Assembly: GCA_038087875.1 (NCBI GenBank) | Contig: CM075987.1 | Span: 25,050,001-25,114,000 of the forward strand | Reading direction: 5' to 3' | Source of the DNA: Malacoraja senta | Taxonomy: Eukaryota | Length of the DNA: 64,000 nucleotides | Part shown: positions 11,248 through 54,233 of the stretch, in pieces | Numbering within the stretch: the first letter of the stretch is position 1 | Layout of the letters: each line of letters begins with the position of its first letter | Notes under the pieces: generated by a model | Seen by the model: the letters and a program-made list of their open reading frames with translations, nothing else | Told to the model about the DNA's origin: nothing | Database searches by the model: none | Made by a program: the position numbers and the translations under genes

Positions 11248-11275
11248 CTGAAGAAGGGTCTCGACCCGAAACGTC
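11248..11275 (+). ncRNA. Minimal hammerhead ribozyme core inside a Penelope pLTR fragment (about 11235-11378)
   Basis: CTGAAGA-A-GGGT(CTCG)ACCC-GAAA-CGTC gives CUGANGA, stem II, GAAA, palindromic ACGU stem III and a GUC cleavage triplet. Confidence 0.65.
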
Positions 11276-11494
11276 ACCCATTCCTTCTCTCCAGAGATGC
11301 TGCCTGTCTCGCTGAGTTACTCCAGCATTTTTGTATCTATCTTCGGTTTAAACCAGCACCTACAGTTCCTTCCTACATATGATGCCCAATATGTGCAGCG
11401 AGGAATGGTATCTTCCGTATACATATTGCGCTGTCCTCATTAAAACACATTCAAATTTATTGTACTTGCCCCTGATACAGCTGATGAATAACAA

Positions 11495-12140
11495 TAGATG
11501 CGCAGAGTCTCTTGCCCAGCGCAGGGGAATCGAGGACCAGAGGACATAGGTTCAAGGTGAAGGAAAAAAGATTTATAACCATATAACCATATAACCATAA
11601 CAGCACGGAAACAGGCCACCTCGGCCCTTCAAGTCCGTGCCGAACATTTTTTATAATTTTTTTTTTAAATTAAAAATAAATACTTCCCCCTAGTCCCATC
11701 TACCTGCACTCAGACCATAACCCTCCATTCCTTTCCCGTCCATATACCCATCCAATCTATTTTTAAAGGATAACATCGAACCTGCCTCCACCACTTCCAC
11801 TGGAAGCTCATTCCACACAGCTACCACTCTCTGAGTAAAGAAGTTCCCCCTAATGTTCCCCCTAAACTTCTGTCCCTTAATTTAATAGGAATCTGAGGGG
11901 TAATTTTTTCACACAAAGGATGGTGGGTGTATGGAACAAGCTGCCAGAGAAAGTAGTTGAGGATGGGACTATCCCATCAGTTAAAAAACAGTTAAACATG
12001 GATAGGACAGGTTTGGAGGGATATGGACCAAGCGCAGGCAGGTGGGACTAGTGTAGCTGGGACATGTTGGCTGGTGTGGGCAAGTTGGACCGGAGGACCT
12101 GGTTCCACACTGTATCACTCTATGACTCTCTGACTCTATT
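11495..12140 (+). mobile_element. CR1 (HER1-like) fragment interrupted by an antisense CR1 3' end (about 11576-11880)
   Basis: Host sequence GAAGGAAAAAGATTT resumes as TTTAATAGGAATCTGAGG at 11881; insert has (TAACCATA)n tail. Confidence 0.7.
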
Positions 12141-12609
12141 GTCACACAATTCTCTGCCAACCTTGGGCTTGAATCAGAACAACATCAATAAATAAGCCCC
12201 ACACGTCTTCAATGAAAGACACGTTATTTCTCCAGCAATTACTTCAATACTTGAATACACACTTCCTAAACACAAGATTGGGTGCTGTTAGTTTTCCATT
12301 TCAATTTGCCCCAGAACATTGTTGTTAAAACCAACATGATCAGGAGAACAAAACAAAAAGATTCACCGCTGGGCCACAAATGACATTTTCTGATATAAAC
12401 TAAAAAAAAACAATGGAAAAAGAAATGCTAATTTTAATTTATTCCTATCTTCTCATTTTGTTCTGAAATCTTCCAAACAAATCTGATTCCAAAAAGGATA
12501 TGGTATCTACTGAGGAATCCCTACTTCACATTCCTATTGGTTTGCCATAGGTGATGATAAGGCTTTTCCACATTTGGTTCCCTATTCTGCAGGTTGAGTT
12601 GGGACCGAA

Positions 12610-13585
12610 CGAAAAGGAAGATAGACACAAAATGCTGGAGGAACAGCGAGACAGGCATCATCTCTGGGTAGAAGGAATGGGTGACGTTAGGGGTCGAGAC
12701 CCTTCTTCAGACTGAGAAAGGTACAAAGGTGTTTTATTGTCACAAGTGCGAAGTGCAAACGCACAGTGAGGTTCTTTTCTTACAAACAGCACAGTAGAGT
12801 ATTACCATACCATCCCCGATTAGCAATGGTAGAGAAATAGTCTACTGAGACCGCATGCAAGAGGCGCCATGTTTTGCCGCCATTTTCCAAGTCCAGCCCA
12901 CGTACCAGTTGTTATGAGCGGAGCCCGATTCAGGCGAGGCCCAGGCTTCTGCGGGGCCTCCAGCCATTGCCTTCCTTGGTCGCTGCTTATTATTTCCATG
13001 GACACCAAATGCTCCATCATTCCAGTAGCACGTGCTGTACTTGATGCCGATTTCTCCTTCCAACTTTTAAAGGCAGTTGAGTCTGATGAAGGGTTCCAAC
13101 CCCAAACATCACCTATTCCTTTTCTAAAGGGATGCCCCCTGACCCGCTGAGCTACTCCATCATTTTGTGTCTATCTTCGGTATAAACCAGCATCTACAGT
13201 TCCTTCATATACATTTGGGTCTGAGGTAATGGATTATAATTTCCCTTTCATCAAATTCCTCTTTCTATTGTACTTCACGAGACTCGCGTTTGTCCAAAAC
13301 CAATGAACCAGGACGTATTTCTCCTCAAACGAAACCCAGTGATTCTCCCCTCTCTCAAGATCAATCCAAAGTGTCCATCTTCTTTAGATTTTACTTCCAG
13401 CAGCTTTTTTTTACTTCTTTTTGTCTTGAAGAACGTTATCTGAAGAAGTCTGAAGAAGGGCCTCGACCCGAAACGCCACCTATTCCTTCTCTCCAGAGAT
13501 GCTGCCTCACCCGCTGAGTTTCTCCAGCATTTTTGTCGGCCTTCAATTTTCCAGCAACTGCAGTTCTTTCTTTAACATTATCTTG
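12610..13585. mobile_element. Cluster of Penelope pLTR fragments (about 12617-12716, 13079-13212, 13440-13575) around an unclassified short element
   Basis: Degenerate CTGA(T/A)GA...AAAC cores at 12683-12710 (-), 13083 (+) and 13450 (+). The 12725-13075 element resembles 60615-60735. Confidence 0.55.
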
Positions 13586-14088
13586 AACAGATTACTTTTC
13601 AAACTGGCAAATGGAAGGTGTTCAGCAACAGACTGACACAGAGACTGTATCTTGAATACAACATTTCTCACTCAAGAGCCAATCTTTCTCAAATCTCCCC
13701 TCAGAGTTGTAGTTGGTTTGAAGCATCTAAAATGTTTCATGACAATTTTTTAAGCCTCATTTGACATACTCGTAGTTATACAGCGTGGAAACAGGCCCTT
13801 CGGCCCAACTTGCCCACACACTGACCAACATGTCCAATCTACATTAGTCGCAGATACCCCTTTAAAACCCGTCAGCTTTGCAGCTTTACAATTCAGATCT
13901 CAATATTTTTTCCCTCTTTGCCTCCTTTCCCTTTCACCTTCTAAGTCGATCGCATCACCATTTTAGAGAATAATTGGGGTTTATAACCTTTGCCCATGTC
14001 AACATTTAGTTCACACATATTGACACGTCTTTATTTTATCATTCAAATCACCAAAGAAAAAAATAACTTAGTCAAATAAGATTCATCG

Positions 14089-14985
14089 TGGGCGGAACGG
14101 TGGCGCAGCGGTAGAGTTGCTGCCTTACAGCGCCAGGTTGGATCCTGACTACGGGTGTTGTCTGCACGGAGTTTGTACATTCTGGGGATGTGGGGAGAAG
14201 GCAGGAACGGTGTACTGATTGTGGACGATCAGCCATGATCACATTGAATGGGATGGCGGGACTGTCATATGCTGAGAGAATGGAGCAGCTGGGCTTGTAT
14301 ACTCTGGAGTTTAGAAGGATAAGAGGGGATCTCATTGAAACATATAAGATTGTTAAGGGGTTTGGACACGCTAGAGGCAGGAAACATGTTCCCGATGTTG
14401 GGGGAGTCCAGAACCAGGGGCCACAGTTTAAGAATAAGGAGTAAGCCATTTAGAACGGAGACGAGGAAACACTTTTTTTCTCACAGAGAGTGGTGAGTCT
14501 GTGGAATTCTCTGCCTCAGAGGGTGGTGGAGGCAGGTTCTCTGGATGCTTTCAAGAGAGAGCTAGTTATGGCTCTTAAAAATAGCGGAGTCAGGGGATAT
14601 GGGGAGAAGGCAGGAACGGGGTACTGCTTGGGGATGATCAGCCATGATCACATTAAATGGTGGTGATGGCTTGAAGGGCTGAATGGCCTACTCCTGCACC
14701 TATTGTCTATTGTTTATCGAATGGCGGTGCTGGCTCGAAGGGCCGAATGGCCTACTCCTGCACCTATTGTCTATGCTCCACGTGACCTGCATGGGTTTTC
14801 TCCCAGATCTACGGTTCTCTCCCACACTCCAAAGGTGTACAGGTTTGTAGGTTAAGTTGTTTGGTACAAATGCTAAAATTGTCCCTGGTGTGTGTAGGAT
14901 AGTGTTTATGTGCGGGGGGATCACTGGTCTGCGCGGACTTGAAGGGCCTGTTTCCGCGCTGTATCTCTAAACTAAATTAAATTAA
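14089..14985 (+). mobile_element. HE1-like SINE split by nested CR1 3' fragments (about 14183-14776)
   Basis: SINE head to 14182 and V-domain resuming at about 14777; CR1 ORF end with duplicated tail GCCGAATGGCCTACTCCTGCACCTATTGTCTAT. Confidence 0.8.
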
Positions 14986-15782
14986 ATCATGACTAGTTTT
15001 TGAATTTGTAAAGCACAACTCACTTATGAAGAATTAGCTCAAGAACTGCAAAAATAATGCTCCTCCTGATCGTATTCGTTTAAAGCCAAGATCATTTATC
15101 ATAATGTTTGCAATCTTCTTTAGGTTACACCCGATCAATAAGGCAAAATTCTGGTGCAGTGTTTAATTTGTGTTGTTACTCAATAAAATCCGACCTTGAG
15201 CAATAAATTACTAACAGGTTTTATTGGGTTTTAAAACAAATTAAAAAGAGCCCTGTTGCTTTCCAAACTGCATCTTGCAGAGTCCTGATCTTGCGGTGAG
15301 GGTTAGTCACTAGTCTTGTTGGCAGAAGATTGACACAAAAGGCACAAAAAGGCCCCCACCCCACTCTCTGGGCAAAAAACTTGCCCCGTACATCTCCGTT
15401 AAACATTCCCCCTCTCGCCTTATAGCCATGTCCTCTAGTGTTGGATATTTCCACGCTGGGAAAACGCTTTTGTCTACCCTATCTATGCCTCCCATATTTC
15501 TACACGGCCTCCTCTCAACCTCTGATATTCCAGAGAAAACAATCCTAGTCTCTCCAACCTCTCCTTGCAGCTGAAAACCTCTCATTCAGGCAGCGTTCTG
15601 GTAAACCTCCTTTCCACCAAAGCGTCCACATCTCTCCTGTCGTTGGGCGACTAGTACTGCACGCCGTGCTCCAAATGTGGCCCAACCCAAGTCCGATAGA
15701 GACTGCTTGGAGAGATGTGTATTTTACATACAATGTTCACGACATCAGCAACACAGTGCTGATCTGCAAACACTTACAGGTT

Positions 15783-15955
15783 TAATCTGAAGACAGACAC
15801 AAAATGCTGGAGTAACTCAGCGGGACAGGTGGCATCTCTGGAGAGAAGGAATGGGTGACATTTCTGGTCGAGACTCTTCTTCAGAGAGATGCTGCCTGTC
15901 CCGCTGAGTTGACTCCAGCATTTTGTGTCTATCTTCAGTCTTATTGGCAGCATCT
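15783..15955. mobile_element. Penelope-derived fold-back element
   Basis: GACACAAAATGCTGGAGTAACTCAGCGGGACAGG arm plus its inverted copy. Confidence 0.7.
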
Positions 15956-16130
15956 GAAGGTGGCTTTCCACACGGAGCCAGCTCCTCCTTGCCGGCTGGC
16001 AGAGGTGGTCGGCGTGCCCAGAAACGTTATGGACCTAGGCCCATTTAATTCACCCAGACCCATGTCCCACCAAATCAATACGAAGTTTAAGAAGATTGCG
16101 AAGATCAGAACGCCATTGGTTACCCAACCC

Positions 16131-16588: not shown

Positions 16589-19095
16589 TGGTTCTTGGTT
16601 CTTGGTTTCTTGGTCCTCCAAAATATTCCAAATGGAATTTAAACTGGAGGTGGTGGAGGGAGGACTTAAGCCAGAAAGGGTTTTTGGGAAGAAAGAGCTA
16701 CCTTAAATTTAGTTGCATCTGGTTGGGTAACTATAGTAGGGTGGAGATTATTCCATGCTTTAATTGTGCGGGGGAAGAATGAATTGCTGTACACATCTGT
16801 CTTGGTAGCTGGAATCACAAATTGGATCGAATGCCCTCGTCTGCTCCTAGTTGGTTTGGGTTTGGTGTAGGTCTTGTAATCTATGTCGAGCTGACCATTT
16901 AACATTTTGTAAAAACAGGTCAAACGGTGAGCTTCACGTCTGTCTTGGAGAGGGTTCCACCCCAGAGAATTCAGAAGTTTGGTAACACTCGCTTCTCTCT
17001 CATAGGTGTTAGTAACAAATCGAGCTGCCTGTCTTTGGACACGTTCGATGGAAGAAATGTTTTTATTTGTGTATGGGTCCCATGCTGCAACTGCGTAGTC
17101 CAAATGAGGTCTAACGAGGGTGAAGTATAGATTCTCCTTGACAGAAGTTGAACAATGATGAAAGTTGCGTCTCAGAAAATTTAGGACACCTGTTGCTTTC
17201 ACCGTTGCATGATGAGGCTGACCATTCCAACGCAGATCATTCTGCAATTTGATGCCAAGATACTTGGTTTGTTTGGATTCTTCAAGGGTGGTACCAAGTA
17301 TATTGTACAATGTTTCGCCTGGATTCCTCTTTCTGGTGACACGCATGGTTTCACATTTGGAAGGGTTGAACTGCATGCCCCATTGGTGTGACCACTCAAC
17401 CATTGTATCGAGGTCCTTTTGGAGAGCATCTTCATCATCAGCTGACTTAATTGGACGGTACAGCAAACAATCATCAGCGAATAGTCTGGTCGTGCTTGCG
17501 ACTTTTTCATGGATGTCGTTTATGTAAAGCAAAAACAGATGTGGGCCAAGTACTGTGCCCTGAGGTGTACCACTCAACACTGGATGCCAATTGGAGCTCT
17601 TTCCATTCACACACACACACGCTGAAGACGTTTTGTCAGAAAACTGGAAATCCATCGTTTCGTGTTGGAACGAATACCATAGAAGTCAAGCTTCCGAAGC
17701 AGTCTCTGGTGTGGGATGACATCAAACGCTTTAGAAAAGTCCAGCACTACTAAATCCGTGATGACATTACCATCAAGATGTTTGGCCAGGTCATTTGTCG
17801 TCAGGATAAGCTGAGACTCACATCATCTATGCCTCCTAAATGCATGTTGGTTGTCAGCAAGAATATTATGTTTGCTCACGTGTCGCATCAGATTACTATC
17901 AATTACATGGTCCAGTAATTTGCAGCAAGTACTTGTTAATGAAACAGGACGATAATTTGCTTGGTTGGTGGTTGAACCTTTTTTAAAGAGAGGAGTGATG
18001 TTAGCCTTCCTCCAATCCAGCGGAACATCACCTGAGTCAAGCGATTGTTGGAAAATGAACTGCAAAACTGGAGCCAGTTCTTCGGCCGCGATCTTGAGGG
18101 CTTGATTCTGTATCTGATCTGGTCCAATTGCTTTTGTGGTATTGATGTTGAGCAATAACTTCTTGACACCTTCAACCTCAATTTTAATAGCAGGCATATC
18201 AGCATACGGGCTGGGCGGTAGAACTGGAAATGATGAAGGCTCCATATCTTCCCGGGTGAAAACGTGTTGGAATTGGTTTGCAAGAGCTTCTGCTTTCGCC
18301 TGGTCCTCAGTGATCAGACAGTTGTTCACTTTAAGCATCTGGACACCAGTGTTGTCTGTCCGTCTGGATTTCACATATCTCCAAAAAGCCTTGGGTTGCT
18401 CTCCCCCAAGAATAGAAGAAACATGTTGTCTATGAGCACTCCTAATAGCACGATCGACTTGCTTTTGCATTCTAGTCAAATTGTCCCAGTCCAGTTTTGT
18501 ACCCCTTTTTTTGGTACGGATATAAAACTTCTCTTTCTTACTGCAGAGACGTTTCAGTTTTGCCGAAAACCAAGGAGGACGCATACGGCCCTTAATGAGT
18601 TTTTGAGGAAAATGATTTGTAACAATATTATTTAAAGAGTCTCTCAGCCACACCCAGTTGTCATTTACGGATCTTTTACCTGGTTGCAGGTTGAAGAAAT
18701 CTTTTCCCAGTTTTTTTGCTAAGACTTTAAATTCCTCGCTGTGCACTTTTCTCCAGAGGGAAATGTTACGCGGTGGCTTTGAAGGAACTTTAAGCTTTGT
18801 GTGCAGTTTTGCTTGGATAATATAATGATCGCTAATTCCAGCACACGATGAAACTTCCGAAATTAAATCTGGGTGAGAAGTGAACAGTAAATCTAGAGTA
18901 TTTTCGGTGCCACTTGTCTCATCACGTCTGGTAGGGAAAGTGACTTTTTGGGACAGGTGATTTTCCAGAGTAAGGTCAGCTAGGGCTTCCTGGAGAGCTC
19001 CTTCTGGTTCACTTTGTATGCCGTCAGACCAATCTGTATGCCGTCACTTTGGATGCCGTCAGACCACTCGGCATACAATCTGACGGCATAAACAA
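16589..19095 (-). mobile_element. CR1/L2-group LINE of invertebrate-like (Daphne/Crack-like) type, 5'-truncated
   Basis: EN end (TLDLLFTSHPD, GISDH); RT motifs GPDQI, YRPVSLTS, GTPQGTVLGP, FADDC, SFFPRTIKAWNNL; (CCAAGAA)n tail; TGTTCT duplicated at 16583-16588 and 19096-19101. Confidence 0.85.
16666..19015 (-). pseudogene. EN-RT ORF with one nonsense mutation and one frameshift
   Basis: ORFs 17823-18746 and 16666-17655. TGA at 17823-17825 replaces S in RHRSCESQL; frameshift at the (CA)n run 17608-17620. Confidence 0.85.
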
Positions 19096-19269
19096 TGTTC
19101 TATATCTATTTATATCACTGTCTATATCTCTTGTATCCCTCTCTCCAGACTCTCAGTCTGAAGAAGGATTTTGCCCTGAAACGTCAGCTATTCCTTTTCT
19201 CCAGAGGTGCTGTCTGACCCGCTGAGTTACTCCAGCTATTGGGTGGGTGTGGCGGGTGGCAGCTCAAGT

Positions 19270-20650: not shown

Positions 20651-20992
20651 TGGTGTAACAATAATCTCAGCCGACTCGTAGAAGTATTCCCACAGTCAGC
20701 GACCGAGGGAAAAGCAGAGTTTTCAGCTGATATTTTAAACATTTTAATCAGCGCTCATTAAAACATTTAAACATCTGCATTCAATTAGGTGAAATATCAA
20801 ATATTGAAATTTAAAATCCATTATATTATATTGGATCATCTGAGCATGCAAAATCAGGCATTCTGGAAAACCAGAGACTCTTCCAAATAATAGTACATTA
20901 GATACACTTCCATGTCACGCACACCAGACAATATTATCGAGGTATTTTACACAATATAGATATGTATAAGATGTTGGTCACATTTCAAGTAT

Positions 20993-21185
20993 AGACACAA
21001 AATGCTGGAGTAACTCAGCGGGACAGGAAGCATCCCCGAATGGAAGGAATGGGTAACTTTTCGGATCCCAAAACAACCCAAAATGTCACCCATTCCTTCT
21101 ATTTGGAGACGCTGCCTGTCCCGCTGAGTTACTCCAGTATTTTGTGTTTATCTTCAGTGTAAAGCAGCATCTGCAGTTCCATCCT
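20993..21185. mobile_element. Penelope-derived fold-back element inserted in a CR1 fragment
   Basis: 15-bp TSD TCACATTTCAAGTAT at 20978-20992 and 21186-21200; inverted arms. Confidence 0.8.
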
Positions 21186-21409
21186 TCACATTTCAAGTAT
21201 TGTGTTCAGTTTTGGGCGCTGCGCTCTAGGAAGGATGCTGTTAAGGTGGAAAGAGTGCAGAGAAGATATGAGGATGTTGCCAGCACTTGAGGGCCTGAGC
21301 TATAGAGAGTGGTTGTGCAGGCTAGTTCTTTACTCCTTGGAGTGCAGGAGGATGAGGCCAGATCTTATTGAGGTGTAGAAGGTCATGAAGGGGATAGATG
21401 AAGAGAATG

Positions 21410-22895: not shown

Positions 22896-23170
22896 CGAAT
22901 CTATTTATTTGTTTGCGGGTAAAATAGCAGACATAATTGCAGACGTGAGCGTGTTTGAGTTGATTATTGGAGGGGTTTACACCACCTGCAAAATGCCGCC
23001 TTAACCCATCCTTCATTCACCACTCCTCATTTATCCTCGATAAATACTATCACCCAAACAAGACAGACCTGAGATAGGCACAAAATACTGGAGTAACTCA
23101 GCCGGACAGTCAGCATCTCTGGATAGAAGGAATGGGTGACATTTCGGGTCGCGACCCTTCTTTAGAGTGA

Positions 23171-23838: not shown

Positions 23839-23999
23839 GATGGTGCTTAGGGCAAATAAATGGGATATGCAGAAAGCAATGATAATTAAGGAAATATAGA
23901 GCCCACATTGTTGGCTGTGGGATAGGTGGGATAGGTGGGATAGGTGGGATAGGAAACAGTACAGACAGACATTTTCACACCTTATTCTGCATATCCCTA

Positions 24000-24155
24000 G
24001 ACTCCCTCTCCCATGACTCTCAGTCTGAAGAAGGGTCTCGACCCGAAACATCACCCATTCCTGCTATCCACAGTTGCTGCCTGTGCTGCTGAGTTACTCC
24101 AGCATTTTGTGTCTATCCTCGGAGTAAACCAGCATCTGCAGTTCTTTCCTACACA
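24000..24155 (+). mobile_element. Penelope pLTR with hammerhead-like core (24025-24052)
   Basis: CTGAAGAAGGGTCTCGACCCGAAACATC. Confidence 0.7.
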
Positions 24156-24434
24156 AGACAGACCTACCTGGCTTTGCATTGCGGAGCACAGGCTGCATAC
24201 CAGTGCTAATTTGTTTTCACTGAAATTGTGCTAGGAACATTATTTTCAGTTGCAACAGCATCAATCTTATCGGTCCGCTGAGAAATTCTTTACAAAAGAA
24301 GAATGTCAAAGTGAAGGACAAAAAGTCATCAATTTTGAGCTTTACGGCAGCTATCATTTCTATCTTTGCAGAAGTCAGCTCAATCAAAATACCTCTGTGC
24401 TACCACATATCTGCAACGGTTGATCAAGTATAGG

Positions 24435-26050: not shown

Positions 26051-26302
26051 GCCCCTGAGCACATTGCCGTAGGGGACGGTTTCTGGTCATTGGAAGCATG
26101 TTTACAGACAGCACCCTTGTACTTGTAATCCCATGCATTGAGATGCTTAGTGTGCTGGTTGTATGTGGCTGCGTCAAGCTGTGCATTTTTGGGCACCGTG
26201 TTATAGGAGCGATGTTGTCAAGCTGGGAAGGGTTGCAGAGAGCAGAGAACATTTACGAGGATGTTGCCAGGACTCGAGGACCTGAGCTGTAGGGAGAGGG
26301 TG

Positions 26303-26437
26303 GACGCAAAATGCTGGAGTAACTCAGCGGGACGTTTCGGGTCGAGGTCTGAGGAAGGGTGTCGACCTGAAACGTCACCCATTCCTTCCATCCGGAGATG
26401 CTGCCTGTCCCGCTGAGTTACACCAACATTTTGTGTG
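26303..26437. mobile_element. Penelope-derived fold-back element
   Basis: Inverted arms with core CTGAGGAAGGGTGTCGACCTGAAACGTC at 26349. Confidence 0.65.
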
Positions 26438-27678: not shown

Positions 27679-27827
27679 TTTAGGTCATTCGGCCCATCCA
27701 GTCTGTTCTACCATTCAACCATGGCTGACCTATCTTTCCCTCTCAACCCCAGAATGAGGTTGAGAGGGAAAGATAGGTCAGCCATGGTTGAATGGTAGAG
27801 TAGACTGGATGGGCTGAATGACCTAAA
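27679..27827. repeat. Inverted repeat of a CR1 3' UTR; 70-nt arms, 9-nt loop
   Basis: 27679-27748 is the reverse complement of 27758-27827 with about 3 mismatches. Confidence 0.9.
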
Positions 27828-30409: not shown

Positions 30410-31114
30410 AACTCCCTCTCCCCTGACTCTCCGTCTGAAGAAGGGTCTCGACCCAAAACTTCACCCCTTCCTTCTCTCCAAGGATGCTGCCTGACCTGAT
30501 GAGTTACCCCAGCATTTTGTGTCTATCTTCCATGGGAACATGTTGTCTACTCATTCATTCATTCATTATTTTTTAATGATTTGTTCCTACTTATTAACTT
30601 CACCCGTACTAGCGACAGAAATTGTTTGCAAATGTTCTATGCTTCCCGGAGAGGGGGGGGGGGCAAAGAAAAAGCTGCCACCATCAGCTAAAGCTGCCTC
30701 CCATAGCCAAAGGGATTAGATTTATTTTAATATCATCGGCTTAACATTCTGCGCCAGATAATGTCATATTTATCGCAAGCTGTATTCAAATTTACTGCAG
30801 TATTCACTTGCACACAGCACCTGCTTGCTCCATAGACTGCACAAGGTCACGCCAGGCAGTATGAAGCGTTTCAGTACATGATCCAACATTAGCCACTGAA
30901 TGCTGATGCAGGATCAATTAAAGAATCGCAATGTGGACGTGCCACTGGTTCCCAGAGTGGAGGCGTTTGCCTGAATGTCCCCACCAATTACTGCTGTATC
31001 AGTCTGCCGCTCTGATACTGGACTGTTGAAATAGACTCTGCAGGTACATACACTTTGTTGGAAGTCCGTTTCCAAGTCCAACTCCTACTTCAAGCTAATT
31101 AGCTGGCACAATAT

Positions 31115-32500: not shown

Positions 32501-34678
32501 CAGTCAAACTTTAAACTGGTCAATTTTGAAACACGACCATGGTACGTCCACTTAATTGCAAAAAGGACAAGGTTGAATTAAAGCCTGCACCTAACCCACA
32601 ATTCGAAGATTCATCATTCCCAGTGCTACAAATGCATCTTGAACTGGCTTCTAATGCACTTGGCATTACAACCAGATAGATGGTTCCTTAAATACAAGTT
32701 GCAATAAATTCTACATTTTCTTTTGGAAGCATGAAGGACAAGATTACAAGATTAAATGCCGCGATTTTCATTTCTAAAGACATTAATTGAACTTGTATTT
32801 CAAATTTAGAGTCATTAACAATACAGCGGACAGCCAACCTTTTTAACAATTCACCTCCACAGCAGTTTCGCCAGCTGCAGAGAGATTTAACTGCGGAATA
32901 TTATGTTTAGCAAGGACTTAAAGTGCCCTGCCAAAAGAATTTGGGATAAAAAAACTGACTGGAACACCAAATGTGCCTCATGCATCCAATCAGTCTTGTA
33001 AATCAGACTAGCTTTAAGCTGTTACATTGCTAAGACGCTTTTCGAGTAAGCAACAGATATTTGATGCTATTCACCAATATCTGGAGAACCGTAAAAGATA
33101 CAGCAGGTTTAGATGGAGGCAACAGATTACACACAATTCCTTTTTGAAGCGATTCTCAGATTGCTTCAAACTGCAAGGGAGGTGGAAGATTAAAATCAAG
33201 GAAAGTTCATGAAGATAATTAACTACGGGAGACCCAAACTGAGCCAGAAGGCAAGGTCTTACAAAAGTGAGGCAGATATATTCCAAAGCTTATAATACGA
33301 TAAACCTACCCATGTGTTGGCCCCGACGCATATCTTTGGATGCAGGTTCTTAAAAAATTAATGCAACATGAGAAAAGACAGAGCAATTAACAGGACACGG
33401 AGAAATGTTAGGTATGAAACTTGGATTATATTTGATAGGATTCCTACGCAGCGACAATGTTAGGCCTAATATCGTCTGATTTCGGGGAGAAAAAGACCCA
33501 TGGTCCTCATGAATATTCACTCAAAGCAACATCAATATTCAAAGCCACGTGGCATTATTGACATAAAGGAGTTACAACAGGTTTCTGAATCACTCAGAAT
33601 ATTTATGATATCCAAGTATCTCAGTCCCGGTGGAAACAAACTTAATATCACACTCAAATATTTTTTCAATGCGCTTTTCAATGAGCAAAATATTCCTCAA
33701 TTAGACACAAAAAGCTGGAGTAACTCGGCGGGACAGGCGGCATCTCTGGAGAGAGGGAATGAGTGACGTTTCTGGTCGAGACCCTTCTTCCTTCTTCACA
33801 GCCAGAGGACATCCACACGGTCACGGGGAGAAGGTACAAAGACTGTACAGACAGCACCCCTAGTCAGGATCGAACCTGGGTCTCTGGCGCTGGAGGCCTG
33901 GAGAAAAGTGCCAACTCCACATAGATTGAATCTGGGTCTCTGGCGCAGTGAGGCAGCAACCCTACAAGCTGCAGCACTGTGTCTGCATCCAATCCACAAC
34001 TTTAATTTCAAGCTTCTTGTCCCTACACGACATCGCACGGCTCTGCGATTTCTCCACCATCCTACGTCATTTCCACAAGGTCTCATATATCAAGCAGCTG
34101 ATCCTTTTCTATTCCGGCACTGGGACCATTGAATGATTTGCAATCGATAACAATTCCTGTCCCAATTGTAACCTAAAATATCAGCTCGCGTTTTAGAACA
34201 GCACCAGCCGCCGTTTCAATCACAGCTGTGAAGCTCGGAGAGCGACAATGGAATGTGACAGCTCGCATCGTTATAAATTTTCACGTTAACATGATGAGCC
34301 TCAAAGCAGTGCTTAGGACAAGGTCAGATGCAAGATTCTTGCAGGAGTGCAGTGCACAAACCCTCACAATGAAAATCAACAATGAAGCTACAGGAGCTCA
34401 TTTCAGCAGCGGCACAAACATTCAACTTGTTCGCCAACGCTCTCTCACATTGCGTCCCTGTCAATTCCCAGAGATAAGTCTTTCTATTTGGACAAGTTTT
34501 GTTCAACTATTCCTTATCTATCCCACCATATTGACAGGCGGTACATGGGGAGGTTGAGCTGAAAGCATTGTGCCCTTGGTATGGAAACTGCAATCTTCAG
34601 AACACCACGGTCTCACAAGTGTTTGGTGACCAGAAATTTACAACAATGACATGCATCCTTTTGCTGGTCAAAAAGGAA

Positions 34679-37185: not shown

Positions 37186-38355
37186 AATTTGAGTGACTGG
37201 TCCAATTTATTTCTCCCCTCAAAGCAAAGAGTAATGAAGGAAACAACACACCAGATATGTGACATCAATGACATTGATGTTTCCCTTCAAGTTAAAAGAG
37301 CTTGAGTCCGGAGACTATGAGGAGTCGTCAGCTCCAGGCCAATCAAATATTCTTGATCAATCAAATAATTGAACAAATCTCAAAAGCATTTTGACTTTAA
37401 TGATTGTTTAACGACATAGAACGATTCAATGTGGTTGAGAGAGAAGGATAAGGTCATAAGGTCATGTGATTGGAGTAGAATTAGGCCATTCTGCCCATCA
37501 AGTCTACTCCACCATTCAATCATGGCTGATTTATCTCTCCCTCCTATCCCCATTCTGCTGCCTTCTCCTTATAACTCCTGACATGGATAGATCAGCCATG
37601 ATTGAATGGCGGAATAGACTTGATGGGCTGAATGGCCCAATTCTCTCCCTATCCCTTATGACCATGTGAGGTTTTCAGGTGCAGTGCTCAGAGATTAGTA
37701 CAGGTGTTAGGGGTTATGAGTGGAATGGGGTTAAGAGGGAAAGATAGATCAGCCATGATTGAATGGCAGAGTAGACTTGATGGGCCGAATGGCCTAATTC
37801 TGCTCGTAGAATTTATGACCTTATGATTCTTGCGAAGACATTAAGGAGAATACTCGAAGCAAAGTTTGAGCAGTTTACCTTTGAAGGTCCATTATAACTG
37901 ACATGGTTCTTGCAGAATAATTGCATCCTGAGATCCCAGACTGAGCAAAACCAAAGTCAAAATGCAGCTTTAAATGCAAAAGGAGGTGAAAAAATGATTG
38001 CCGTCTCTGACCTGAATGGAAGACAGATGTGTGGGGAGAGAGAGAGAGAGATTGTGGGGAGTCTGTTAAACAATGCCAAAGCCAGGGAAAGTTAAGCGCA
38101 CCGCATAAGATATTCAATCCCAGGCTCTGATGATGTCAGAAAGTAGGACCAATTATACTTGCACTCAATGAGGATGCTTAACTCTCTGAAAGCAGTAACA
38201 ATTCCTTCCAGAGGTAATTATAGGTAATAAAGGTGAGAATATTTGGCACCAAAGGGCAAAAGGCTGGTGGGTGTATGGAATGAGCTGCCAAAGGAGGTAG
38301 TTGAGGCAGGGACTATCCCAACATTTAAGAAACAATCAGACATGTACATGGATAG

Positions 38356-38696
38356 TGTTAAAGAAGGAACTGCAGATGCTGGAAAATCGAAGGTACACAA
38401 AAATGCTGGAGAAACTCAGCGGGTGCAGCAGCATCTATGGAGCGAAGGAGATAGGCAACGTTTCGGGCCGAAACCCTTCTTCAGACTGATAGGGGGTGGG
38501 GAGAAGAAAGGAAAAAAGGAAAAAGGCGGAGGAGGAGCCCGAGGGCTGGGGGAGGGGAGGAGACAACCAGATGGCTGATGATGGGGAGGGGACAGCAAGG
38601 GCTAGCAGAATTGGGAGAATTCAATGTTCAGGCCACCAGGATGTAGACTGCCCAAGCGGAATATGAGGTGCATTTCCTCCAATTTACGGTGTTGGC
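38356..38696 (-). mobile_element. Penelope-like element 3' end (GIY-YIG C-terminus plus pLTR with hammerhead core), inserted in CR1
   Basis: 38602-38691 (-) encodes HRKLEEMHLIFRLGSLHPGGLNIEFSQFC*; intact core CTGAAGAAGGGTTTCGGCCCGAAACGTT at 38457-38484 (-); 10-bp TSD ACATGGATAG. Confidence 0.85.
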
Positions 38697-39156
38697 ACAT
38701 GGATAGGACAGGTTTGGAGGTGATATGGACCAAACGCAGGCAGGTGGGACTAGTGTAGATGGGACAGGTTGGTCAGTGTGGGCAAGTTGGGCCGAAGGGC
38801 CTGTTTCCACGATGTATGACTCCAGGACTACACAAAAAAACAAAAAACATAACTGGCAGCTGTCGACAATTCAAGCTGTAATAAATGCACACATTTTGCA
38901 AGATATCTTTTTGATGAAACATAAAATTAAATACGTTTGTTGGAAGGAGCAGCAGCACACGTCTCTTTCTGATCTACTGTGGCTGCCCTGGGAGTAGAGT
39001 TGCAATTTGTTCATCTGATATTTTATAATCCCTGGGAATAGAAAGGTCATGTCCAAGCGGCTCACACCAGCGTTATTCAAGAAAAACAGAAGCAGCGGTG
39101 TTGAGACTAATGCAACAGAACGCACAATTAAGATGCTCCGCTCCCATCATGATCGA

Positions 39157-42060: not shown

Positions 42061-42121
42061 TCAGGTCATAGTTCTAACTGATACCACACTGAAAAACGAA
42101 GTGTATTACAACTTCAATTGA

Positions 42122-42338
42122 ATGTACACAAATATGCTGGAGAAACTCAGCGGGTGCAGCAGCATCTATGGAGCGAAGGAAATAGGCAACGTTTCGGGCC
42201 GAAACCCTTCGTCTGAAGAAGGGTTTCGGCCCGAAACGTTGCCTATTTCCTTCGCTCCATAGATGCTGCTGCACCCGCTGAGTTTCTCCAGCATTTTTGT
42301 GTACCTTCGATTTTCCAGCATCTGCAGTTCCTTCTTAA
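42122..42338. mobile_element. Young Penelope-derived fold-back element with intact hammerhead core (42213-42240)
   Basis: About 87-nt arms (42124-42210, 42218-42304) with 1 mismatch; 14-bp TSD ACAACTTCAATTGA at 42108-42121 and 42339-42352. Confidence 0.88.
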
Positions 42339-42352
42339 ACAACTTCAATTGA

Positions 42353-43050
42353 GTTTAGTTCAGAGATACAGCGCTGAAACAGGCCCTTCGGCCCACCGAG
42401 TCCGCACTGACCTGCAACCCCCACACAATAACACTATCCTACACACACTAGGGACAATTTACAATTATATCAAGCCAATTAACCAACAAACCTGTACGTC
42501 TTTGGAGTGTGGGAGGAAACCGGACATCCCGGAGAAATCCCACGCGGGTCACGGGGAGAACGAACAAACTCCGTACCGACAGCACCCGTAGTCAGGCTCG
42601 AACCCGGGTCTCTGCCGCTGTAAGGAGGCAACTCTACCGCTGCGCCACCGTGCACTCCTGTGAAAATAATGTGAACATCAACTGCTCACGTCCCATAACC
42701 AGGCAATCACACCCACACTACTGCCGGAATCATTAGTAGATTGCAGCTAAATGCACAGGGCGGCACGGTAGCGCAGCGGTAGAGTTGCTGCCTTACAGCG
42801 CCAGAGACCCGGGTGCGATCCTGGCCATGGGTGCTGTCTGTACGGAGTTTGTACGTTCTCCCCGTGACCGCGTGGGTTTTGTCCGGTTTCCTCCCACATT
42901 CCAAGACGTACATGTTTGTAGGTTAATTAGCTTTGGTAAAGATTGTATATTATCCCCAGAGTGCGTAGGATAGCGCGAGTGAACGGGGATCGCTGATCGG
43001 CGCGGACACGGTGGGCCGAAGGGCCTGTTTCCACGCTGCATCTCAAAACT
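42353..43050. mobile_element. Divergent pair of HE1-like SINEs (42353-42652 -, 42757-43050 +)
   Basis: Two full-length copies head-to-head, about 105 bp apart. Confidence 0.88.
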
Positions 43051-43574
43051 GGGGTCAAGGAAAGAGCGTTCCAGTCGCGGCCCTGTTTCCACCAATCTTT
43101 CCACCACCACTCACAAGAAGCGACGAGACAAGCACCATTGTACGCAGATGCCGAGAAGTGTGTTCAGCTCTGGCTGAACAACTTCTAATCTTGTGTGTGG
43201 ACTCGATAAGAAGAAGATCTCAAAACTAAACTAAATTAAACTAGAATCTCTGTGAGTGTGTTAGAAGGAACTGCAGATGCTGGTTTACACCGAAGATAGA
43301 CACAAAATGCTGGAATAACTCAAAGGGGCAGGCAGCATCTCTGGAGAAAAGGAATAGGCAAAATCCCAACTCTGCACCAGAAGGAAAAGACACAGGAAGA
43401 AATCGTATTATTGTGCAAGTAATTTAATGGCGAACAAAGTCCTCTCATACCATCAAATATTGATGAAACATGCTGGAAGCTGCCAGCCTATGGTCCAAAT
43501 AATTCTGCTCAAATCCTATTATCCTCCAGGGGTCTGAAAAACTGGCCAAATACTTGGCATGAAACTAAAATTCA

Positions 43575-46028: not shown

Positions 46029-46254
46029 CTGCACCACTGTGTCGCCCCAATCTATACCTACAATAACTTATGGGATGTTATAGTTATATTTAACTTATTT
46101 CCAATTCCACATCATAGTGGGTTTTGAACTCAAGTGTCTGTAGAGTCCAGGCCTCTGGATCACTCGCTGGATAATTTGGCCACTGTGGTGCCTCATTAAG
46201 CTAAATATGGGATGGTACATATTTGTAGAAGATTTAAAAATAGATAGAAGATGG

Positions 46255-46580
46255 AGACAAAAAGCATGAATAACTCAGCGGGTCAGGCAGCATCTCTGGA
46301 GACAAGGAGCAGGTGACGTTTCTGGTCGAGACCCTTCTTCAGACTGAGAGTCGGGGGAAAGGGAAACAAGAGATATCGACGGTGATGTAGAGAGATATAG
46401 AACAAATGAATGAAAGATTTGCAAAAAAAAGTGACGATGATGAGGGAAATAGGCCATTGTCTGCTGTGGGCTAGGTGAAAACAAGTTACAGACAATGAGA
46501 CTCACCTGGACAACAACTAGGGTGGGGGTCAGGGGAGAGGGAAACTAGAGGTATGAAAGGGTTAAAACAAATCAGAGCCG
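46255..46580 (-). mobile_element. Penelope pLTR fragment(s)
   Basis: Core at 46315-46342 (-); homologous to 16480-16588 plus 19096-19240. Confidence 0.7.
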
Positions 46581-46631
46581 GCATGTGGAAGAGGTGACCA
46601 AATTAAAATTTGATCTGCCTAGCATAAAGTT

Positions 46632-51077: not shown

Positions 51078-51210
51078 AAGTGAATGTATAACAAAACTCT
51101 GTTAATCAGGAACTCTGTGGTTTTTTGGCAGTTTCATACTGATAGACAAACTACCTGGACTATTGGCTGTAGTTTCTAATCTTAAGCCAACACGCTTGTA
51201 AATCGCATTT

Positions 51211-53238
51211 ATAAAAAAAATAAAAAAATATATTTTTATTTATTAGAAGTATTGTACAGTGATATCAACCAAAAATAACATAATACATTTCTTGTACCAC
51301 TTCTTATTTTAAACTTTAAAAAGAAGAAAAATAGAAAGAGTTAGATAAGATAGTGAGTGCGTGAAAGAGTGGTCGAGAGAATTACCCGTAGGAACGTAAA
51401 CCATGAGAAAGAGTTAAAAAGAAAACCAAAGAAAAAGAAAGAGAAAAATAGAGAACAGAAGAGAGTAAAATAAGACAAGATAAAAGGGATGTACCTACTC
51501 CGTATCTTTACACACCCCTCACCAGGTCCTGAAACCATTTATTTTCAAAGTTATGTTGCACCCTATGTTTGTAATAAGTCGACAAATGGAGACCAAATCT
51601 TTTGGAAATGGTCTGATTTGCCTGCTAGGAGGAATCTCATGTCTTCCAGGTGTAACAGTTCGGACATATTTGAAATCCACATTTTTATCGTTGGTGTGGG
51701 AGCGTTTTTCCAGAATTTAAGTATAGGTTTTTTTGCCATTATTAAGCCGTAATTAAGGAAGCTCTTTTTGGAACGAAGTCATCTCAAAGCTGGCTTCCAT
51801 TGTTCCGAAAATAATCAGTTCTGCGTTCGGTTTCAGTTTTATTTTAAATAATTTTGTAAAAATTTCAACGATTTAATTCCAACATTTTTGGATTTTTATA
51901 CAAAAAACAAAAGAATGTGCTATAGTTGCTTCTTGGGATAGACATTTATCACAGATGGAAGAGACATTTGGATAAAATTTACTTATTTTAGTATTTGAGT
52001 AATATAGTCCATGTAAAAATTTTAATTGGATTAGAATATGTCTTACATTGATCGAGCATTTGTGCACATATAGCAAGTGTTTATCCCAACTCTCTTTCGA
52101 GATTTTTATAGCTAGTTCTTGTTCCCAATCTCTTCTAATTCTATCGGATGATGGTATTTCTATATTTAGGATGATATTATACAAGTATGATATTAAATTA
52201 GTTGATTCCGCCTTTATATTCATTGCATCGTCTAATAGGTCTGGAGACAAATTTTGATATTCTTGTGTATATTTTTTCAAATAGTCACAGATTTGAAAAT
52301 ATTTAAAATATTGATTACTCAGATTGTATTTAAGTTGTAGTTGGTGAAATGGTTTTAAAAAATCCATTTTCATACACGTCTCCAAACGTTTAAATTCCTA
52401 TTCTATCCCAGTATGTAAATGATTTATCTATAATAGACGGTTTAAACGACGGATTATTAACTATTGGAGAGAGAAGCGATAGGTTTCTTAATTTTAAAGT
52501 TAATTTTATTTGTTTCCAAATTCTAATTGTACTATGAATAATTGGAATTTTACAATATATTGTATTATTCAATTTTGTTGGTGAGAGAAGGATCGCTCCT
52601 ATATTAAAAGGGGAACAATCCTCTCTCTCCATTACTATCCAATCCACCTGCTGGACGGAGTTGTCCAACGGGTGAATCACATTTTTGACATTTGCTGCCC
52701 AATAATAATACAAAAAATTAGGGAGTATTAATCCACCAAATTCTTTAGGTTTGCACAAATATCTTCTTTGAATTCTATGGGATTTATAGTCCCATATAAA
52801 ATTTGTGATATCGGCATCCAGTTTAAAAAAAAACTTTTTTGGTAAGTATATTGGTATTGATTGGAATAGATATAAAATTTGTGGTAGGAAGATCATTTTT
52901 ATAGCATTTGTTCGGCCTATTAAAGACATCGGAAGAGTTTTCCAAAATTTAATCAAGGCGTCTAATTTATTAAGTAGGGGCATATAATTTGCATTAAATA
53001 AAGATTTATATTTTCTAGTAATTTCAATTCCCAAATATTTAAATTTTTCTGAAGCAATTTTAAAAGGGAATTTTAACAGGTGTGTTGAGTCTTGAGGTTG
53101 TATCGTCATAATTTCACTTTTATTCCAATGTATTCTATATCCTGAAAAGGATCCAAATTTCTCTATTAGATTTAATATATTTGGTATACTGATTTATGAT
53201 TTTGTGATGTATAGTAGCACATCATCTGCGTATAATGA
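51211..53238 (-). mobile_element. L1-clade LINE, truncated at the RT YADD motif, frameshifted
   Basis: 12-bp TSD TAAATCGCATTT at 51199-51210 and 53239-53250; begins SLYADD; ORFs 52390-53109 and 51873-52385 are homologous to the 5489-8185 protein; CDKC..H..C knuckle. Confidence 0.9.
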
Positions 53239-53269
53239 TAAATCGCATTTTTAAGATGTCAAATAGCAC

Positions 53270-54046
53270 AGGAAGTGCAAGACCATTGTATGCAGATGCC
53301 GAGAAGTGTCTTCAGCTGAACAACTTCTAATCTTGTGTGTGGACGCAATAAGAAGAGGACCGCATCTTCCAATGTTCTTCGCTCCTGGGCGTTCGAGTTG
53401 CCAAACCAGGCCGTGATACAAGCAAGCAGTCAATATACTCTCTAGTGTACAATCTGTACAAGTTGAAGAAAGTATTCGTTGACAAACCAAATCTCCTTGA
53501 TCTTCTCAAGAAGTAGAGGCACTGAAGGGCTTTCTTTATGAATGCATCAATGTGCTGGATCCAGGACTGATCTTCAGAAATATGCACACCCAGGGATTTG
53601 AAGTTATTGACGCTCTCCACCATCGTCCCGTCGATGAAGACAGGTGGTGGATCCTTGACATTCCTCTTCCAAAGTCAACAATCAGTTCCTTGGTTTTACT
53701 GACATTGAGAGGAGGCTGATTGCTCAGGCTCCATTTGGTCGGTCGATCGATCTCCCTCCGAAACACTCACTCATCGTCATCTGCAATTCATCCAACGACG
53801 GTGGTGTCGTCGGCGAATTTGAGGATGGAGTTGGAACTGTGTGCGGCTACACGGTCATGAGTATAGAGTGAGTAGAGCAGGGGGCTGAGCACACAGCCTT
53901 GAGGTGCTCCAAAGCTGATGGTTATCAAGGAGGAAGTGTTGCTGCCAATTCAGACAGGCTGTGTTCTGTTGATGAAGTCGCTGAGAGTCCAGTTGCAGAG
54001 GGATGCGCAGAGACCTAGTTCCGTGAGCTTGGTAACCTCCAACGCT
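53270..54046 (-). mobile_element. Rex1-type RT fragment
   Basis: [31 protein letters not shown] remnants. Confidence 0.8.
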
Positions 54047-54233
54047 TGTGTAGGAAAGAACTGCAGATGCTGGTTTAAATCGAAGATACACAAAATGCTG
54101 GAGCACCTCAGCGAAACAGGCAGCATCTCTGGAGAGAAGGAAGACTGAAGAAGGGTCTCGACTCGAAACGTCACCCATTCCTTCTCTCCAGAGATGCTGC
54201 CTGTTCCGCTGAGTTACTCCAGCATTTTGTGTC
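54047..54233. mobile_element. Penelope-derived fold-back element with hammerhead-like core (54145-54172)
   Basis: Inverted arms; AACCTCCAA repeated on both flanks. Confidence 0.75.

Follow-up and report, generated by a model that had tools for sequence, protein, structure and literature searches.

The motif that recurs through the window, the whole 64-kb stretch of DNA analysed here, is very probably a minimal type I hammerhead core that lacks helix III and is carried by an abundant Penelope-like retroelement (PLE). It belongs to a 95–135 nt module at the 3′ terminus of this element. The finding is correct but ordinary, because the core is of an already described type and occurs here in cut-short, mostly decayed copies.

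The pattern CTGANGANGGGTYTCGRCCCGAAAC, with up to three mismatches allowed, matches the window 17 times, against a mean of 0.00 matches in 100 dinucleotide shuffles of the same DNA. A looser scan over 28 nt (the core and GU-H, with five substitutions at most) identifies 18 cores, starting at 3709, 11248, 13083, 13450, 19158, 24025, 26349, 30435, 42213 and 54145 on the plus strand and at 3030, 12683, 15857, 23138, 33765, 38457, 42188 and 46315 on the minus strand. All 16 positions named in the initial annotation are recovered with an offset of 0–4 nt, confirming that the motif recurs on both strands; the cores at 3030 and 42188 are additional. The multiplicity stems from one repeat family, so these copies are not independent occurrences.

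The core, which has the consensus CUGAAGA-A-GGGU(C/U)UCG(A/G)CCC-GAAACGU(C/U) in the element, matches the published minimal hammerhead of PLEs. Four traits that PMC4209133 describes for this class, and that fall outside the usual descriptors, are all present: recurrence across the family, one additional nucleotide separating A9 from G10.1, a G10.1–C11.1 pair and a palindromic 15.2–16.2. The initial description also holds for both variants of stem II, for the ACGU palindrome and the GUC and GUU triplets, and for a stem I of about 2 bp. The A and B variants differ on one side of stem II (U-A to U.G, plus one loop base), which is not a compensatory change, and comparison of the two revealed no compensatory covariation in this stem. 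Helix II has 4 bp. Helix I has at most 2 bp with the native flank included, and cannot extend because both flanks are pyrimidine-rich. When the native flank is included, an A copy is predicted to have helix II as its minimum-energy fold (probability 0.67–0.79). In the young B family, an alternative pairing (−7.2 kcal/mol) is predicted for the 44-nt region, with the canonical helix II at −5.1 kcal/mol and a predicted pair probability of 0.02.

The full element is ~2.7–3.3 kb long. The ORF stop lies 117–120 nt ahead of the core in all eight long copies, and the element ends ~70 nt past the core in six of these and ~110 nt past it in two. Its 3′ end runs from the ORF through a ~117-nt pyrimidine-rich 3′ UTR and the core to a short 3′ end 70 nt further on, the distance of ~110 nt probably reflecting an extra ‘tail’. 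The initial annotation placed the motif in Penelope pLTRs. It sits instead in the 3′ untranslated tail, and no adjacent upstream repeat that could be a pseudo-LTR copy is present in L036 or L037, the two full-length copies that reach a common 5′ end.

The proposed link to a GIY-YIG C terminus is real. Positions 38605–38697 (−) hold the final 31 codons of the element ORF (the GIY-YIG end) before the stop; the ORF is broken further upstream at this site, and the same peptide ends ORFs of 620–900 amino acids containing RT and GIY-YIG in many genomic copies. In the ORF at L028:2057–4090, RVT_1 (E 1.2e-5) and GIY-YIG (E 8e-4) both score slightly below the Pfam cut-offs. Another PLE family of the same genome gives an end-to-end alignment with the 900-amino-acid L037 ORF (31% identity, E 2e-88), and the GIY-YIG of that family is above the Pfam cut-off (27.3–30.8 bits). 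Homologues number 681, of which many carry a precomputed PF00078 annotation and some PF01541; the best named ones are labelled only ‘uncharacterized protein’ of a shark (66–69% identity). The element ORF also shows a DKG motif and a CX4CxxC linker, features that PMC8557442 names as marks of PLEs and of Neptune/Nematis.

Modules were delimited by blastn with module queries, giving boundaries that are fuzzy by a few bases, and positions within them are counted from C3. Four of the 18 cores in the window are intact throughout, three on the plus strand and one on the minus strand. The core at 11248–11275 is in a module (11235–11377, +) that begins at C3 without the native helix I strand; directly upstream of C3, a 13-nt stub copies part of this core in inverted orientation and is predicted to sequester the core. 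A second module from C3 (54142–54233, +; core 54145–54172, with one helix II G.U) likewise has no native helix I strand, and pairs head to head with an inverted arm beginning at ~+33 (54045–54142, −). The core at 42213–42240 (GUU) lies in one B-type arm (42211–42340, +) of a near-perfect head-to-head pair; the core of the other arm (42116–42216, −; core 42188–42215) has U4>A. The fourth (38457–38484, triplet GUU) is in a B-type module that is young and retains the native 3′ UTR (38354–38604, −). The initial annotation listed six copies as intact or nearly so, of which these four are intact throughout. The other two, both in modules with native upstream flank, are changed at 24025–24052 (module 23991–24164, +), where the core is complete except for G16.2>A and the ACGU palindrome is gone, and at 46315–46342 (module 46247–46376, −), which has C11.1>A. 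Its inference that a transcript of the locus would carry numerous possible self-cleavage sites, whichever way it runs, is overstated given four intact cores, and is further weakened by the inverted pairing of 42213 and 54145 and the predicted sequestration of 11248.

The other cores are altered to varying extents. G12 and the ACGU palindrome are lost at 3030–3057, in the left arm (2928–3059, −) of a head-to-head pair whose short partner begins at ~+15 (3057–3100, +), and at 13083–13110 (module 13080–13213, +). Helix II retains two of four pairs at 15857–15884, in a head-to-head arm (15779–15885, −) next to an inverted arm from ~+47 (15887–15973, +), and at 19158–19185, in a module that reaches 34 nt upstream of the core (19124–19236, +). 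C3 and A6 are altered (GTGGAGA) at 3709–3736 (module 3709–3799, +, with the inverted arm of a head-to-head pair at 3596–3715, −, beginning at ~+11), G12-A13 (CTA) at 12683–12710 (module 12617–12717, −), and C3-U4 and C11.1 at 33765–33792 (module 33702–33792, −). Substitutions are U16.1>C at 13450–13477 (module 13447–13576, +), G5>A at 23138–23165 (module 23073–23170, −), C11.1>U at 26349–26376 (module 26347–26436, +, near a short inverted arm from ~+63 at 26296–26328, −), and G12>A with G16.2>U at 30435–30462 (module 30411–30530, +, with native upstream flank). Truncation inside the core leaves a module from ~+11 at 1408–1528 (−), and another module is 5′-truncated at ~+15 (60740–60850, −). 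Two inverted arms begin at ~+15 (20988–21067, −) and ~+16 (21076–21190, +), and a module without a core (43257–43358, −) begins at ~+29, one base from the predicted start of the cleavage product (+28). The window copies are probably dead-on-arrival insertions, shortened at the 5′ end, often paired head to head and without a role for the locus. Most of them have decayed since insertion, with the three CpGs in the core accounting for much of the change.

Nothing sets the window apart. It holds 28 modules, compared with 56 in genome stretches picked arbitrarily and totalling 120 kb, which is an equal density. Exact 27-mers number 42,315 genome-wide, against 0 for a reversed-pattern control, and extrapolation gives 8 × 10^5 modules in the genome.

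Among 84 module copies, the 5′ ends of 38 fall within −8 to +5 of C3. These are 38 of the 48 modules that include +5; upstream of them lies unrelated DNA in 19 cases, an inverted arm in 15 and pyrimidine-rich DNA in four, which may be longer copies. Only 10 of the 84 reach past −8. Judged by their target-site duplications, inserts begin at 0 (L020), −3 (L045), 0/+1 (L049) and 0 to +4 (L014), and in two copies 9–13 nt of the 5′ end recur as an inverted stub. Neighbouring copies form 18 head-to-head, no tail-to-tail and two tandem pairs; in 14 of the 18, one arm runs to −9 to +5 and its partner ends between +1 and +63 (at +11 or beyond in 11 of the 14). No excess of 5′ ends is seen at the predicted start of the cleavage product, with three of the 84 modules at +26 to +31, about background. 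Two 3′-end classes lie ~35–40 nt apart, which fits the PLE ‘tail’. This anatomy matches PLE traits described in PMC8557442, including heavy 5′ truncation and an inverted, 5′-truncated copy adjoining the 5′ end.

These features bear on a possible but doubtful alternative, that the block is kept for a non-catalytic reason, as the 5′ edge mark of a self-contained module, with little or no cleavage in the family. Such an edge may be where the template RNA starts, where an internal promoter or start region lies, or where RT stops or turns round. The clustered starts and what lies upstream of them, the target-site duplications, the inverted stubs and the long arms of the head-to-head pairs all point this way, as do the 2-bp helix I, a conserved block that begins at ~−6 between lineages, the TCAGTC at −5 to 0, a putative initiator-like element, and the internal LINE-like promoter of the D. 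virilis Penelope repeat. However, the 5′ ends are spread over ~6 nt, with the blastn imprecision added, and all catalytic core bases are at consensus in the intact copies of both lineages, which a mere boundary would not need. Hammerheads are also reported in every PLE sequence then available (PMC6155905), and the Anolis Poseidon hammerhead is described as cleaving once its protein is added (PMC11167929). In one pairwise comparison of natural copies from the two lineages, identity is 85% (29/34) in the hammerhead block, 82% in the tail, 72% in the last 300 nt of the ORF and 55% in the intervening UTR. The block is no more conserved than the tail that follows it, which counts against the hammerhead reading.

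It is improbable that the modules are independent non-autonomous non-LTR retrozymes, spread through hammerhead-cut circular RNA copied by the PLE enzyme. Modules do outnumber ORF-bearing copies, only ten of the 84 extending past −8, related species' contigs contain some tandem modules (‘goes back’ joints, ~4338 to 4205), and a 2026 preprint (10.64898/2026.07.22.740005) argues for an origin of vertebrate retrozymes from PLE pseudo-LTRs. Retrozymes are, however, expected as tandem arrays with a hammerhead per unit, whereas same-strand neighbours here are two against the 18 head-to-head pairs; permutation of the units about the cleavage site is not seen, and starts do not accumulate at +28.

The Rfam search suggested in the initial annotation matched no hammerhead family, whether at gathering score, at E ≤ 10 over the window, or with lax filters over 161 nt around one intact copy; only weak miRNA-like hairpins appear at inverted pairs (for example mir-722 at 42180–42248, scoring 54 bits where the gathering score is 81), because of the head-to-head insertions. 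Chance resemblance of a GC hairpin or miRNA-like palindrome without hammerhead homology would fit these results but is extremely unlikely, given that ~13 fixed core positions, the right spacing, G10.1–C11.1, the bulged base, the NUH triplet and the ACGU palindrome coincide where PLEs are reported to carry hammerheads.

If the motif is a minimal hammerhead, as we favour, its action in master elements is most likely the one published for hammerheads of other PLEs. Pairing of two copies through the ACGU palindrome would build helix III, possibly with the aid of the protein that the element encodes, and the cut in the RNA would then fall after GUC or GUU. We draw dimer formation and cleavage from the literature on those hammerheads, in which cleavage in vitro is reported to be poor for the minimal forms (PMC4209133) and the Anolis element inserts in vitro without needing its ribozyme (PMC11167929).

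The core resembles the metazoan PLE hammerheads described by Cervera and De la Pena (2014, PMC4209133) in its type I order (CUGANGA, helix II, GAAA, cleavage triplet), in having no helix III of its own and a palindromic ACGU that can pair two copies, in the extra base at A9/G10.1, the G10.1–C11.1 pair and the PLE carrier, and in occurring as thousands of dispersed, mostly truncated singles, some close together on opposite strands. It differs from most of them in a helix II of 4 bp rather than 6–8 bp and a helix I of 2 bp rather than 4–5 bp, 2 bp being reported there only for D. virilis. No upstream pseudo-LTR copy is seen in L036 and L037, and the exact cores and extrapolated modules far exceed the counts given for coelacanth (~4,000) and Xenopus (9,000).

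Like Poseidon PAc of Anolis carolinensis (Frangieh et al. 2024, PMC11167929), the element is a vertebrate PLE with a GIY-YIG endonuclease and a hammerhead of stems I and II only. PAc is described as cutting and extending both target strands and as gaining a ‘tail’ from an internal reverse-transcription start, which the head-to-head pairs and the two 3′-end classes fit. The PAc hammerhead overlaps the ORF start, whereas here it lies behind the ORF stop, and the PAc ribozyme was shown to need the protein. With the endonuclease-positive PLE clades Neptune and Nematis (Arkhipova 2006, cited in PMC8557442) the present element shares an RT with the DKG motif, a zinc-finger-like linker of the form CX2-5CxxC (C-NRKR-C-NT-C in this case), GIY-YIG at the C terminus and a hammerhead close to the 3′ end, and its copies likewise show 5′ truncation, an inverted copy alongside and a tail of 30–40 bp. 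The modules are also like the animal non-LTR retrozymes described in PMC7229834 and 10.64898/2026.07.22.740005 in that they are short, do not code, carry a type I hammerhead, are related to the terminal repeats of PLEs and occur in far greater numbers than the coding element; those retrozymes form tandem arrays that yield circular RNAs, whereas the modules here are dispersed singles or head-to-head pairs.

By its sequence, the window motif is a homologue of the minimal hammerhead of Penelope-like elements (PLEs). The pattern CTGANGANGGGTYTCGRCCCGAAAC has 17 matches in the window at three or fewer mismatches, and none in 100 dinucleotide-preserving shuffles. A 28-nt scan spanning the core and its G-U-H triplet, with five substitutions allowed, identifies 18 cores; it recovers all 16 places named in the initial annotation, offset by 0–4 nt, and adds cores at 3030 (−) and 42188 (−). 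The same ~70–110 nt trails every core, so the multiplicity of the core is that of one repeat family. Across the 1.94-Gb genome (the window being 25,050,001–25,114,000 of its contig 11), there are 42,315 exact matches to the 27-nt core and none to the same pattern reversed.

Both hammerhead boxes, C3 U4 G5 A6 N7 G8 A9 and G12 A13 A14, are at consensus in the four intact window copies, and 11 of the 18 window cores have these boxes at consensus when nothing else is asked of them. The A15.1–U16.1 pair and an N-U-H triplet are present, as GAAA-CG-U-C in the A type and GAAA-CG-U-U in the young B type, the two stem II variants of the core. Helix II has 4 bp and is closed by G10.1–C11.1 (GGGU-NUCG-RCCC). 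An extra A separates A9 from G10.1 in all 18 cores. The ACGU palindrome (15.2–16.2) is kept in 11, including the four intact ones, and lost in seven, five through CpG decay and two through other changes. In the accessible text of Cervera and De la Pena (PMC4209133), the extra base at A9/G10.1 and the palindromic 15.2–16.2 are traits of PLE minimal hammerheads that lie outside the search descriptor, and the four non-descriptor traits found in that text are all present in the intact copies here. The NUH triplet and the ACGU palindrome, proposed at first reading as stem III, are likewise seen in the intact copies, with GUC or GUU as the triplet.

Upstream, the copy at 38354–38604 (−) leads into an ORF whose final 31 codons occupy 38605–38697 (−). 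A whole-genome search with this 31-codon peptide gives 53,889 first-look candidates, and all 150 of those scored matched; most matches are identical across 30 residues, and some lie inside open frames of 600–681 aa. In each of eight long copies fetched for comparison, the ORF stop is 117–120 nt before the core, and the common sequence ends ~70 nt past the core in six and ~110 nt past it in two. One full-length copy (L037) has an uninterrupted 900-codon frame. Pfam scores for the element ORF fall just under the cut-offs, at 24.5–29.1 bits for RVT_1 (cut-off 29.6) and 17.3–20.2 bits for GIY-YIG (cut-off 22.6). The L037 ORF is collinear with that of a second PLE family in the genome (31% identity, E 2e-88), in which GIY-YIG scores above the Pfam cut-off. 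A single ORF with a reverse transcriptase ahead of a C-terminal GIY-YIG is the layout of endonuclease-positive PLEs, and the proposed link between the motif and a GIY-YIG C terminus is real, the 38605–38697 (−) peptide ending frames that carry both domains in many genomic copies. A large protein collection holds 681 homologues of the ORF, many with precomputed PF00078 and some with PF01541; the best named ones are an ‘uncharacterized protein’ of a shark (66–69% identity), and the PDB contains nothing related in sequence to the 900-aa ORF. The element is a canonical endonuclease-positive PLE with a minimal hammerhead near its 3′ end. The cores had been assigned to Penelope pseudo-LTRs (pLTRs); they lie near the PLE 3′ end, and no upstream repeat is seen beside L036 or L037, the two copies extending as far as the shared 5′ end.

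A DKG motif and a C-X4-C-X2-C linker are visible in the translation of another copy (L028), and L037 has NKG. As far as the consulted part of PMC8557442 goes, DKG and a CX2-5CxxC linker are marks of PLEs and of the Neptune/Nematis clades; placement there, which comes from motifs and not from a tree, is tentative. Over ~400 nt at their 5′ ends, the full-length copies (L035–L042; for example L036:1512–1811) carry 2–4 tandem GC-rich repeats of 77–78 nt together with repeats of 26–27 nt, which, when translated, also extend the ORF at its N terminus with proline-rich sequence. Immediately upstream of the ORF remnant in the window, at 38698–38780 (−), the frame enters unrelated sequence, breaking the element; similar stretches occur elsewhere, and this sequence may come from another repeat.

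The second PLE family, with a 759-aa ORF and its above-cut-off GIY-YIG, is found at loci L006, L007 (including L007:1786–3252), L009 and L011 and on contig 14 at ~18.24–18.41 Mb. It is arrayed in tens of copies, and many of these lie on small unplaced contigs; in L007 its 3′ UTR leads directly into a long CCCTAA-like array (units CCCTAACGACCCTAAA). In L007, the stretch from 1,701 to the locus end, which covers the entire 3′ region, lacks a CTGANGA box. A candidate second hammerhead in other PLE families (L002, L004 and L005), a single CTGACGA...GAAA match, was rejected because no U16.1–H17 follows it. The window also contains four non-PLE LINE-type reverse-transcriptase ORFs, at 5492–8215 (−), 16669–19043 (−), 51876–53193 (−) and 57661–60171 (+) (RVT_1 E 1e-36 and 9e-31), with an Exo_endo_phos_2 endonuclease fragment in one ORF and an ALKBH8_N-like stretch in one.

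Rfam hammerhead models do not recognize the motif. The Infernal check proposed for it gives no Rfam hammerhead match in three scans: at gathering score, over the 64-kb window at E ≤ 10, or with lax filters over 161 nt around an intact copy. Rfam gives only weak matches, of hairpin or miRNA-like type and placed at inverted pairs, those at 42180–42248 being head-to-head pairs of the module, the 95–135-nt 3′-terminal unit that holds the core. Elsewhere in the window, a near-perfect 73-nt inverted repeat of unrelated sequence (27679–27827; 95% complementary, 3 nt between arms) also has weak miRNA-like matches (MIR1219, 43.5 bits where the gathering score is 79). At 43040–43102 (+), a match to the CPEB3 (HDV-like) ribozyme model scores 22.7 bits, below its gathering score of 35, with E 4e-4 on 181 nt; the match lacks part of the model, with 5 nt where 18 are expected, and is probably not a ribozyme.

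Helix I reaches 2 bp at best, even with native flank (A/G1.1–U2.1 and C1.2–G2.2), as the initial annotation had estimated; both flanks are pyrimidine-rich, so it cannot extend further. Helix III is absent within a single copy, and the ACGU palindrome alone could supply 4 bp between two copies, but when two B-type 44-mers are co-folded, ACGU helix III is not in the top structure. The A and B types differ in stem II by a one-sided U-A to U.G change plus loop differences, with no other change seen in the helices; there is therefore no covariation, and the A and B lineages show no compensatory helix changes. In predicted folds of the 44-nt region of the young B family, an alternative pairing (−7.2 kcal/mol) is favoured over helix II (−5.1 kcal/mol), which has a probability of 0.02, whereas in an A copy with native flank helix II forms with a probability of 0.67–0.79. 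In one pairwise comparison of natural copies from the two lineages, identity is 85% in the hammerhead block, 82% in the tail, 72% across the ORF’s final 300 nt and 55% in the UTR between. The block is thus kept far better than its upstream flank and no better than the tail downstream. PLE minimal hammerheads are described in the accessible part of PMC4209133 as cutting weakly, as dimers, and the Anolis Poseidon hammerhead, in that of PMC11167929, as cutting only with the element’s own protein.

The window copies themselves are inert relics. Four of the 18 cores, at 11248 (+), 38457 (−), 42213 (+) and 54145 (+), are intact by every measure; the others are damaged in C3–A9, G12–A14, 10.1–11.1, 16.1 or the palindrome, with many changes at the three CpGs. 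Because the copies at 11248 and 54145 begin at C3, the native helix I strand is missing from both. That at 11248 also opens with a 13-nt inverted stub, which is predicted to tie up the core (−11.9 kcal/mol), and those at 42213 and 54145 belong to head-to-head pairs, transcripts of which would fold into long hairpins. The suggestion that a transcript of either orientation would carry many potential self-cleavage sites is therefore overstated. Because most copies are mutationally dead, genome-wide counts of the hammerhead motif put the number of possible cleavage sites too high.

Module abundance and anatomy were assessed in a 184-kb sample comprising the window and twelve arbitrarily chosen 10-kb stretches (120 kb). 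The sample contains 84 modules, occupying 4.4% of its bases, which extrapolates to ~8 × 10^5 modules genome-wide. The window is not enriched: a blastn search with a pair of module queries places 28 copies or fragments in its 64 kb, 10 lacking a full 28-nt core, against 56 in the 120 kb of arbitrary stretches. Ten of the 84 modules reach further than 8 nt beyond the core on its upstream side, and 74 have nothing upstream of −8 (offsets counted from C3, with which the hammerhead box opens). Module 3′ ends form two clusters ~35–40 nt apart, at about +61 to +75 and +98 to +108 after the core. Neighbouring modules comprise 18 head-to-head pairs, no tail-to-tail pairs and two tandem pairs (same strand, within 60 nt). 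In one head-to-head pair (L052:2637–2903) both arms reach −3, and the 29-nt spacer itself lies within a palindrome. The modules share strong 5′ truncation, an abutting inverted 5′-truncated copy at the 5′ end and a 30–40 bp tail with the PLE insertions described in the available portion of PMC8557442. For the Anolis Poseidon enzyme, the consulted part of PMC11167929 reports that both target strands are cut and extended and that reverse transcription starts internally.

The 5′ ends of modules are unevenly placed. Of the 84 modules, 38 start within −8 to +5, and among the 48 copies that include +5 these 38 end there at their 5′ side. Upstream of the 38 lies unrelated DNA in 19, an inverted arm in 15 and pyrimidine-rich DNA in four, the last being possible diverged longer copies. 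Where target-site duplications set the start of the insert, it falls at 0 (L020), −3 (L045), 0/+1 (L049) and 0 to +4 (L014). Two copies open with 9–13-nt inverted stubs of their own start. In 14 of the 18 head-to-head pairs one arm reaches −9 to +5 and the other ends between +1 and +63, at +11 or beyond in 11 of the 14. A cleaved RNA would start at +28, and starts at +26 to +31 number 3 of 84, about the background rate. The RNA that is retro-copied thus seems to have a defined 5′ end where the hammerhead box begins, and cleaved RNA seems to be an uncommon template, the latter in agreement with the Anolis in vitro result as given in the same portion of PMC11167929.

In sequence contigs of four runs from related organisms, summed depth rises about thousand-fold at the module start (bin 4204–4227), and opposite-strand and ‘goes back’ joints occur. 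We rejected this depth as a sign of expression or cleavage: it reflects copy abundance, and contigs carry no RNA ends, strand or level.

Possible causes of the C3 boundary are a transcription start, termination by the enzyme, or its turning round. An initiator and downstream-element reading of TCAGTC...ACGU was dropped as evidence, its spacing being 3 nt off the Drosophila downstream element by hand count. D. virilis Penelope is described, in the text available, as having an internal LINE-like promoter within its repeat. We tentatively raise the possibility, on balance a doubtful one, that hammerhead and tail form a self-contained SINE-like unit whose RNA starts at C3 or up to ~3 nt upstream and not at the cleavage site. 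The reverse transcriptase of such a unit would reach the discrete 5′ end and then either join the target or reverse along the cDNA it has made; such reversal would yield the observed continuum from inverted stubs of 9–13 nt to complete head-to-head pairs. In such a unit, the motif would signal where the template starts at least as much as it serves cutting, with a possible initiator-like TCAGTC at −5 to 0. If the SINE-like unit exists, a short module and not the coding element has filled ~4% of the genome, at the extrapolated 8 × 10^5 copies. That starts pile up at C3 and not at the cleavage site bears on what PLE ribozymes do for their element, and the interest of the window motif rests mainly on this pile-up, of which literature searches aimed at other points returned no published mention.

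Descriptions of PLE minimal hammerheads date from 2014, with others in 2017, 2021 and 2024, according to the parts of those reports available, so the present case adds a family and not a principle. Literature searches on hammerheads of cartilaginous-fish PLEs returned nothing specific, one match using ‘shark’ for the shape of the motif. The present case differs in its very short helices I and II; helix II of metazoan PLE hammerheads is mostly 6–8 bp in the accessible text of PMC4209133, against 4 bp. It also differs in that no upstream pseudo-LTR is seen in the two copies reaching the common 5′ end. Non-LTR retrozymes are tandem repeats with a type I hammerhead in each unit; with two same-strand neighbours within 60 nt among 84, the modules do not form such arrays and, judged by tandem arrangement, are not retrozymes. 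The Anolis element, as described in the consulted part of PMC11167929, has its hammerhead at the start of the ORF, whereas here it lies behind the ORF. Published hammerhead counts for coelacanth and frog are far below the 42,315 perfect cores, and the 4.4% of 184 kb, found here.
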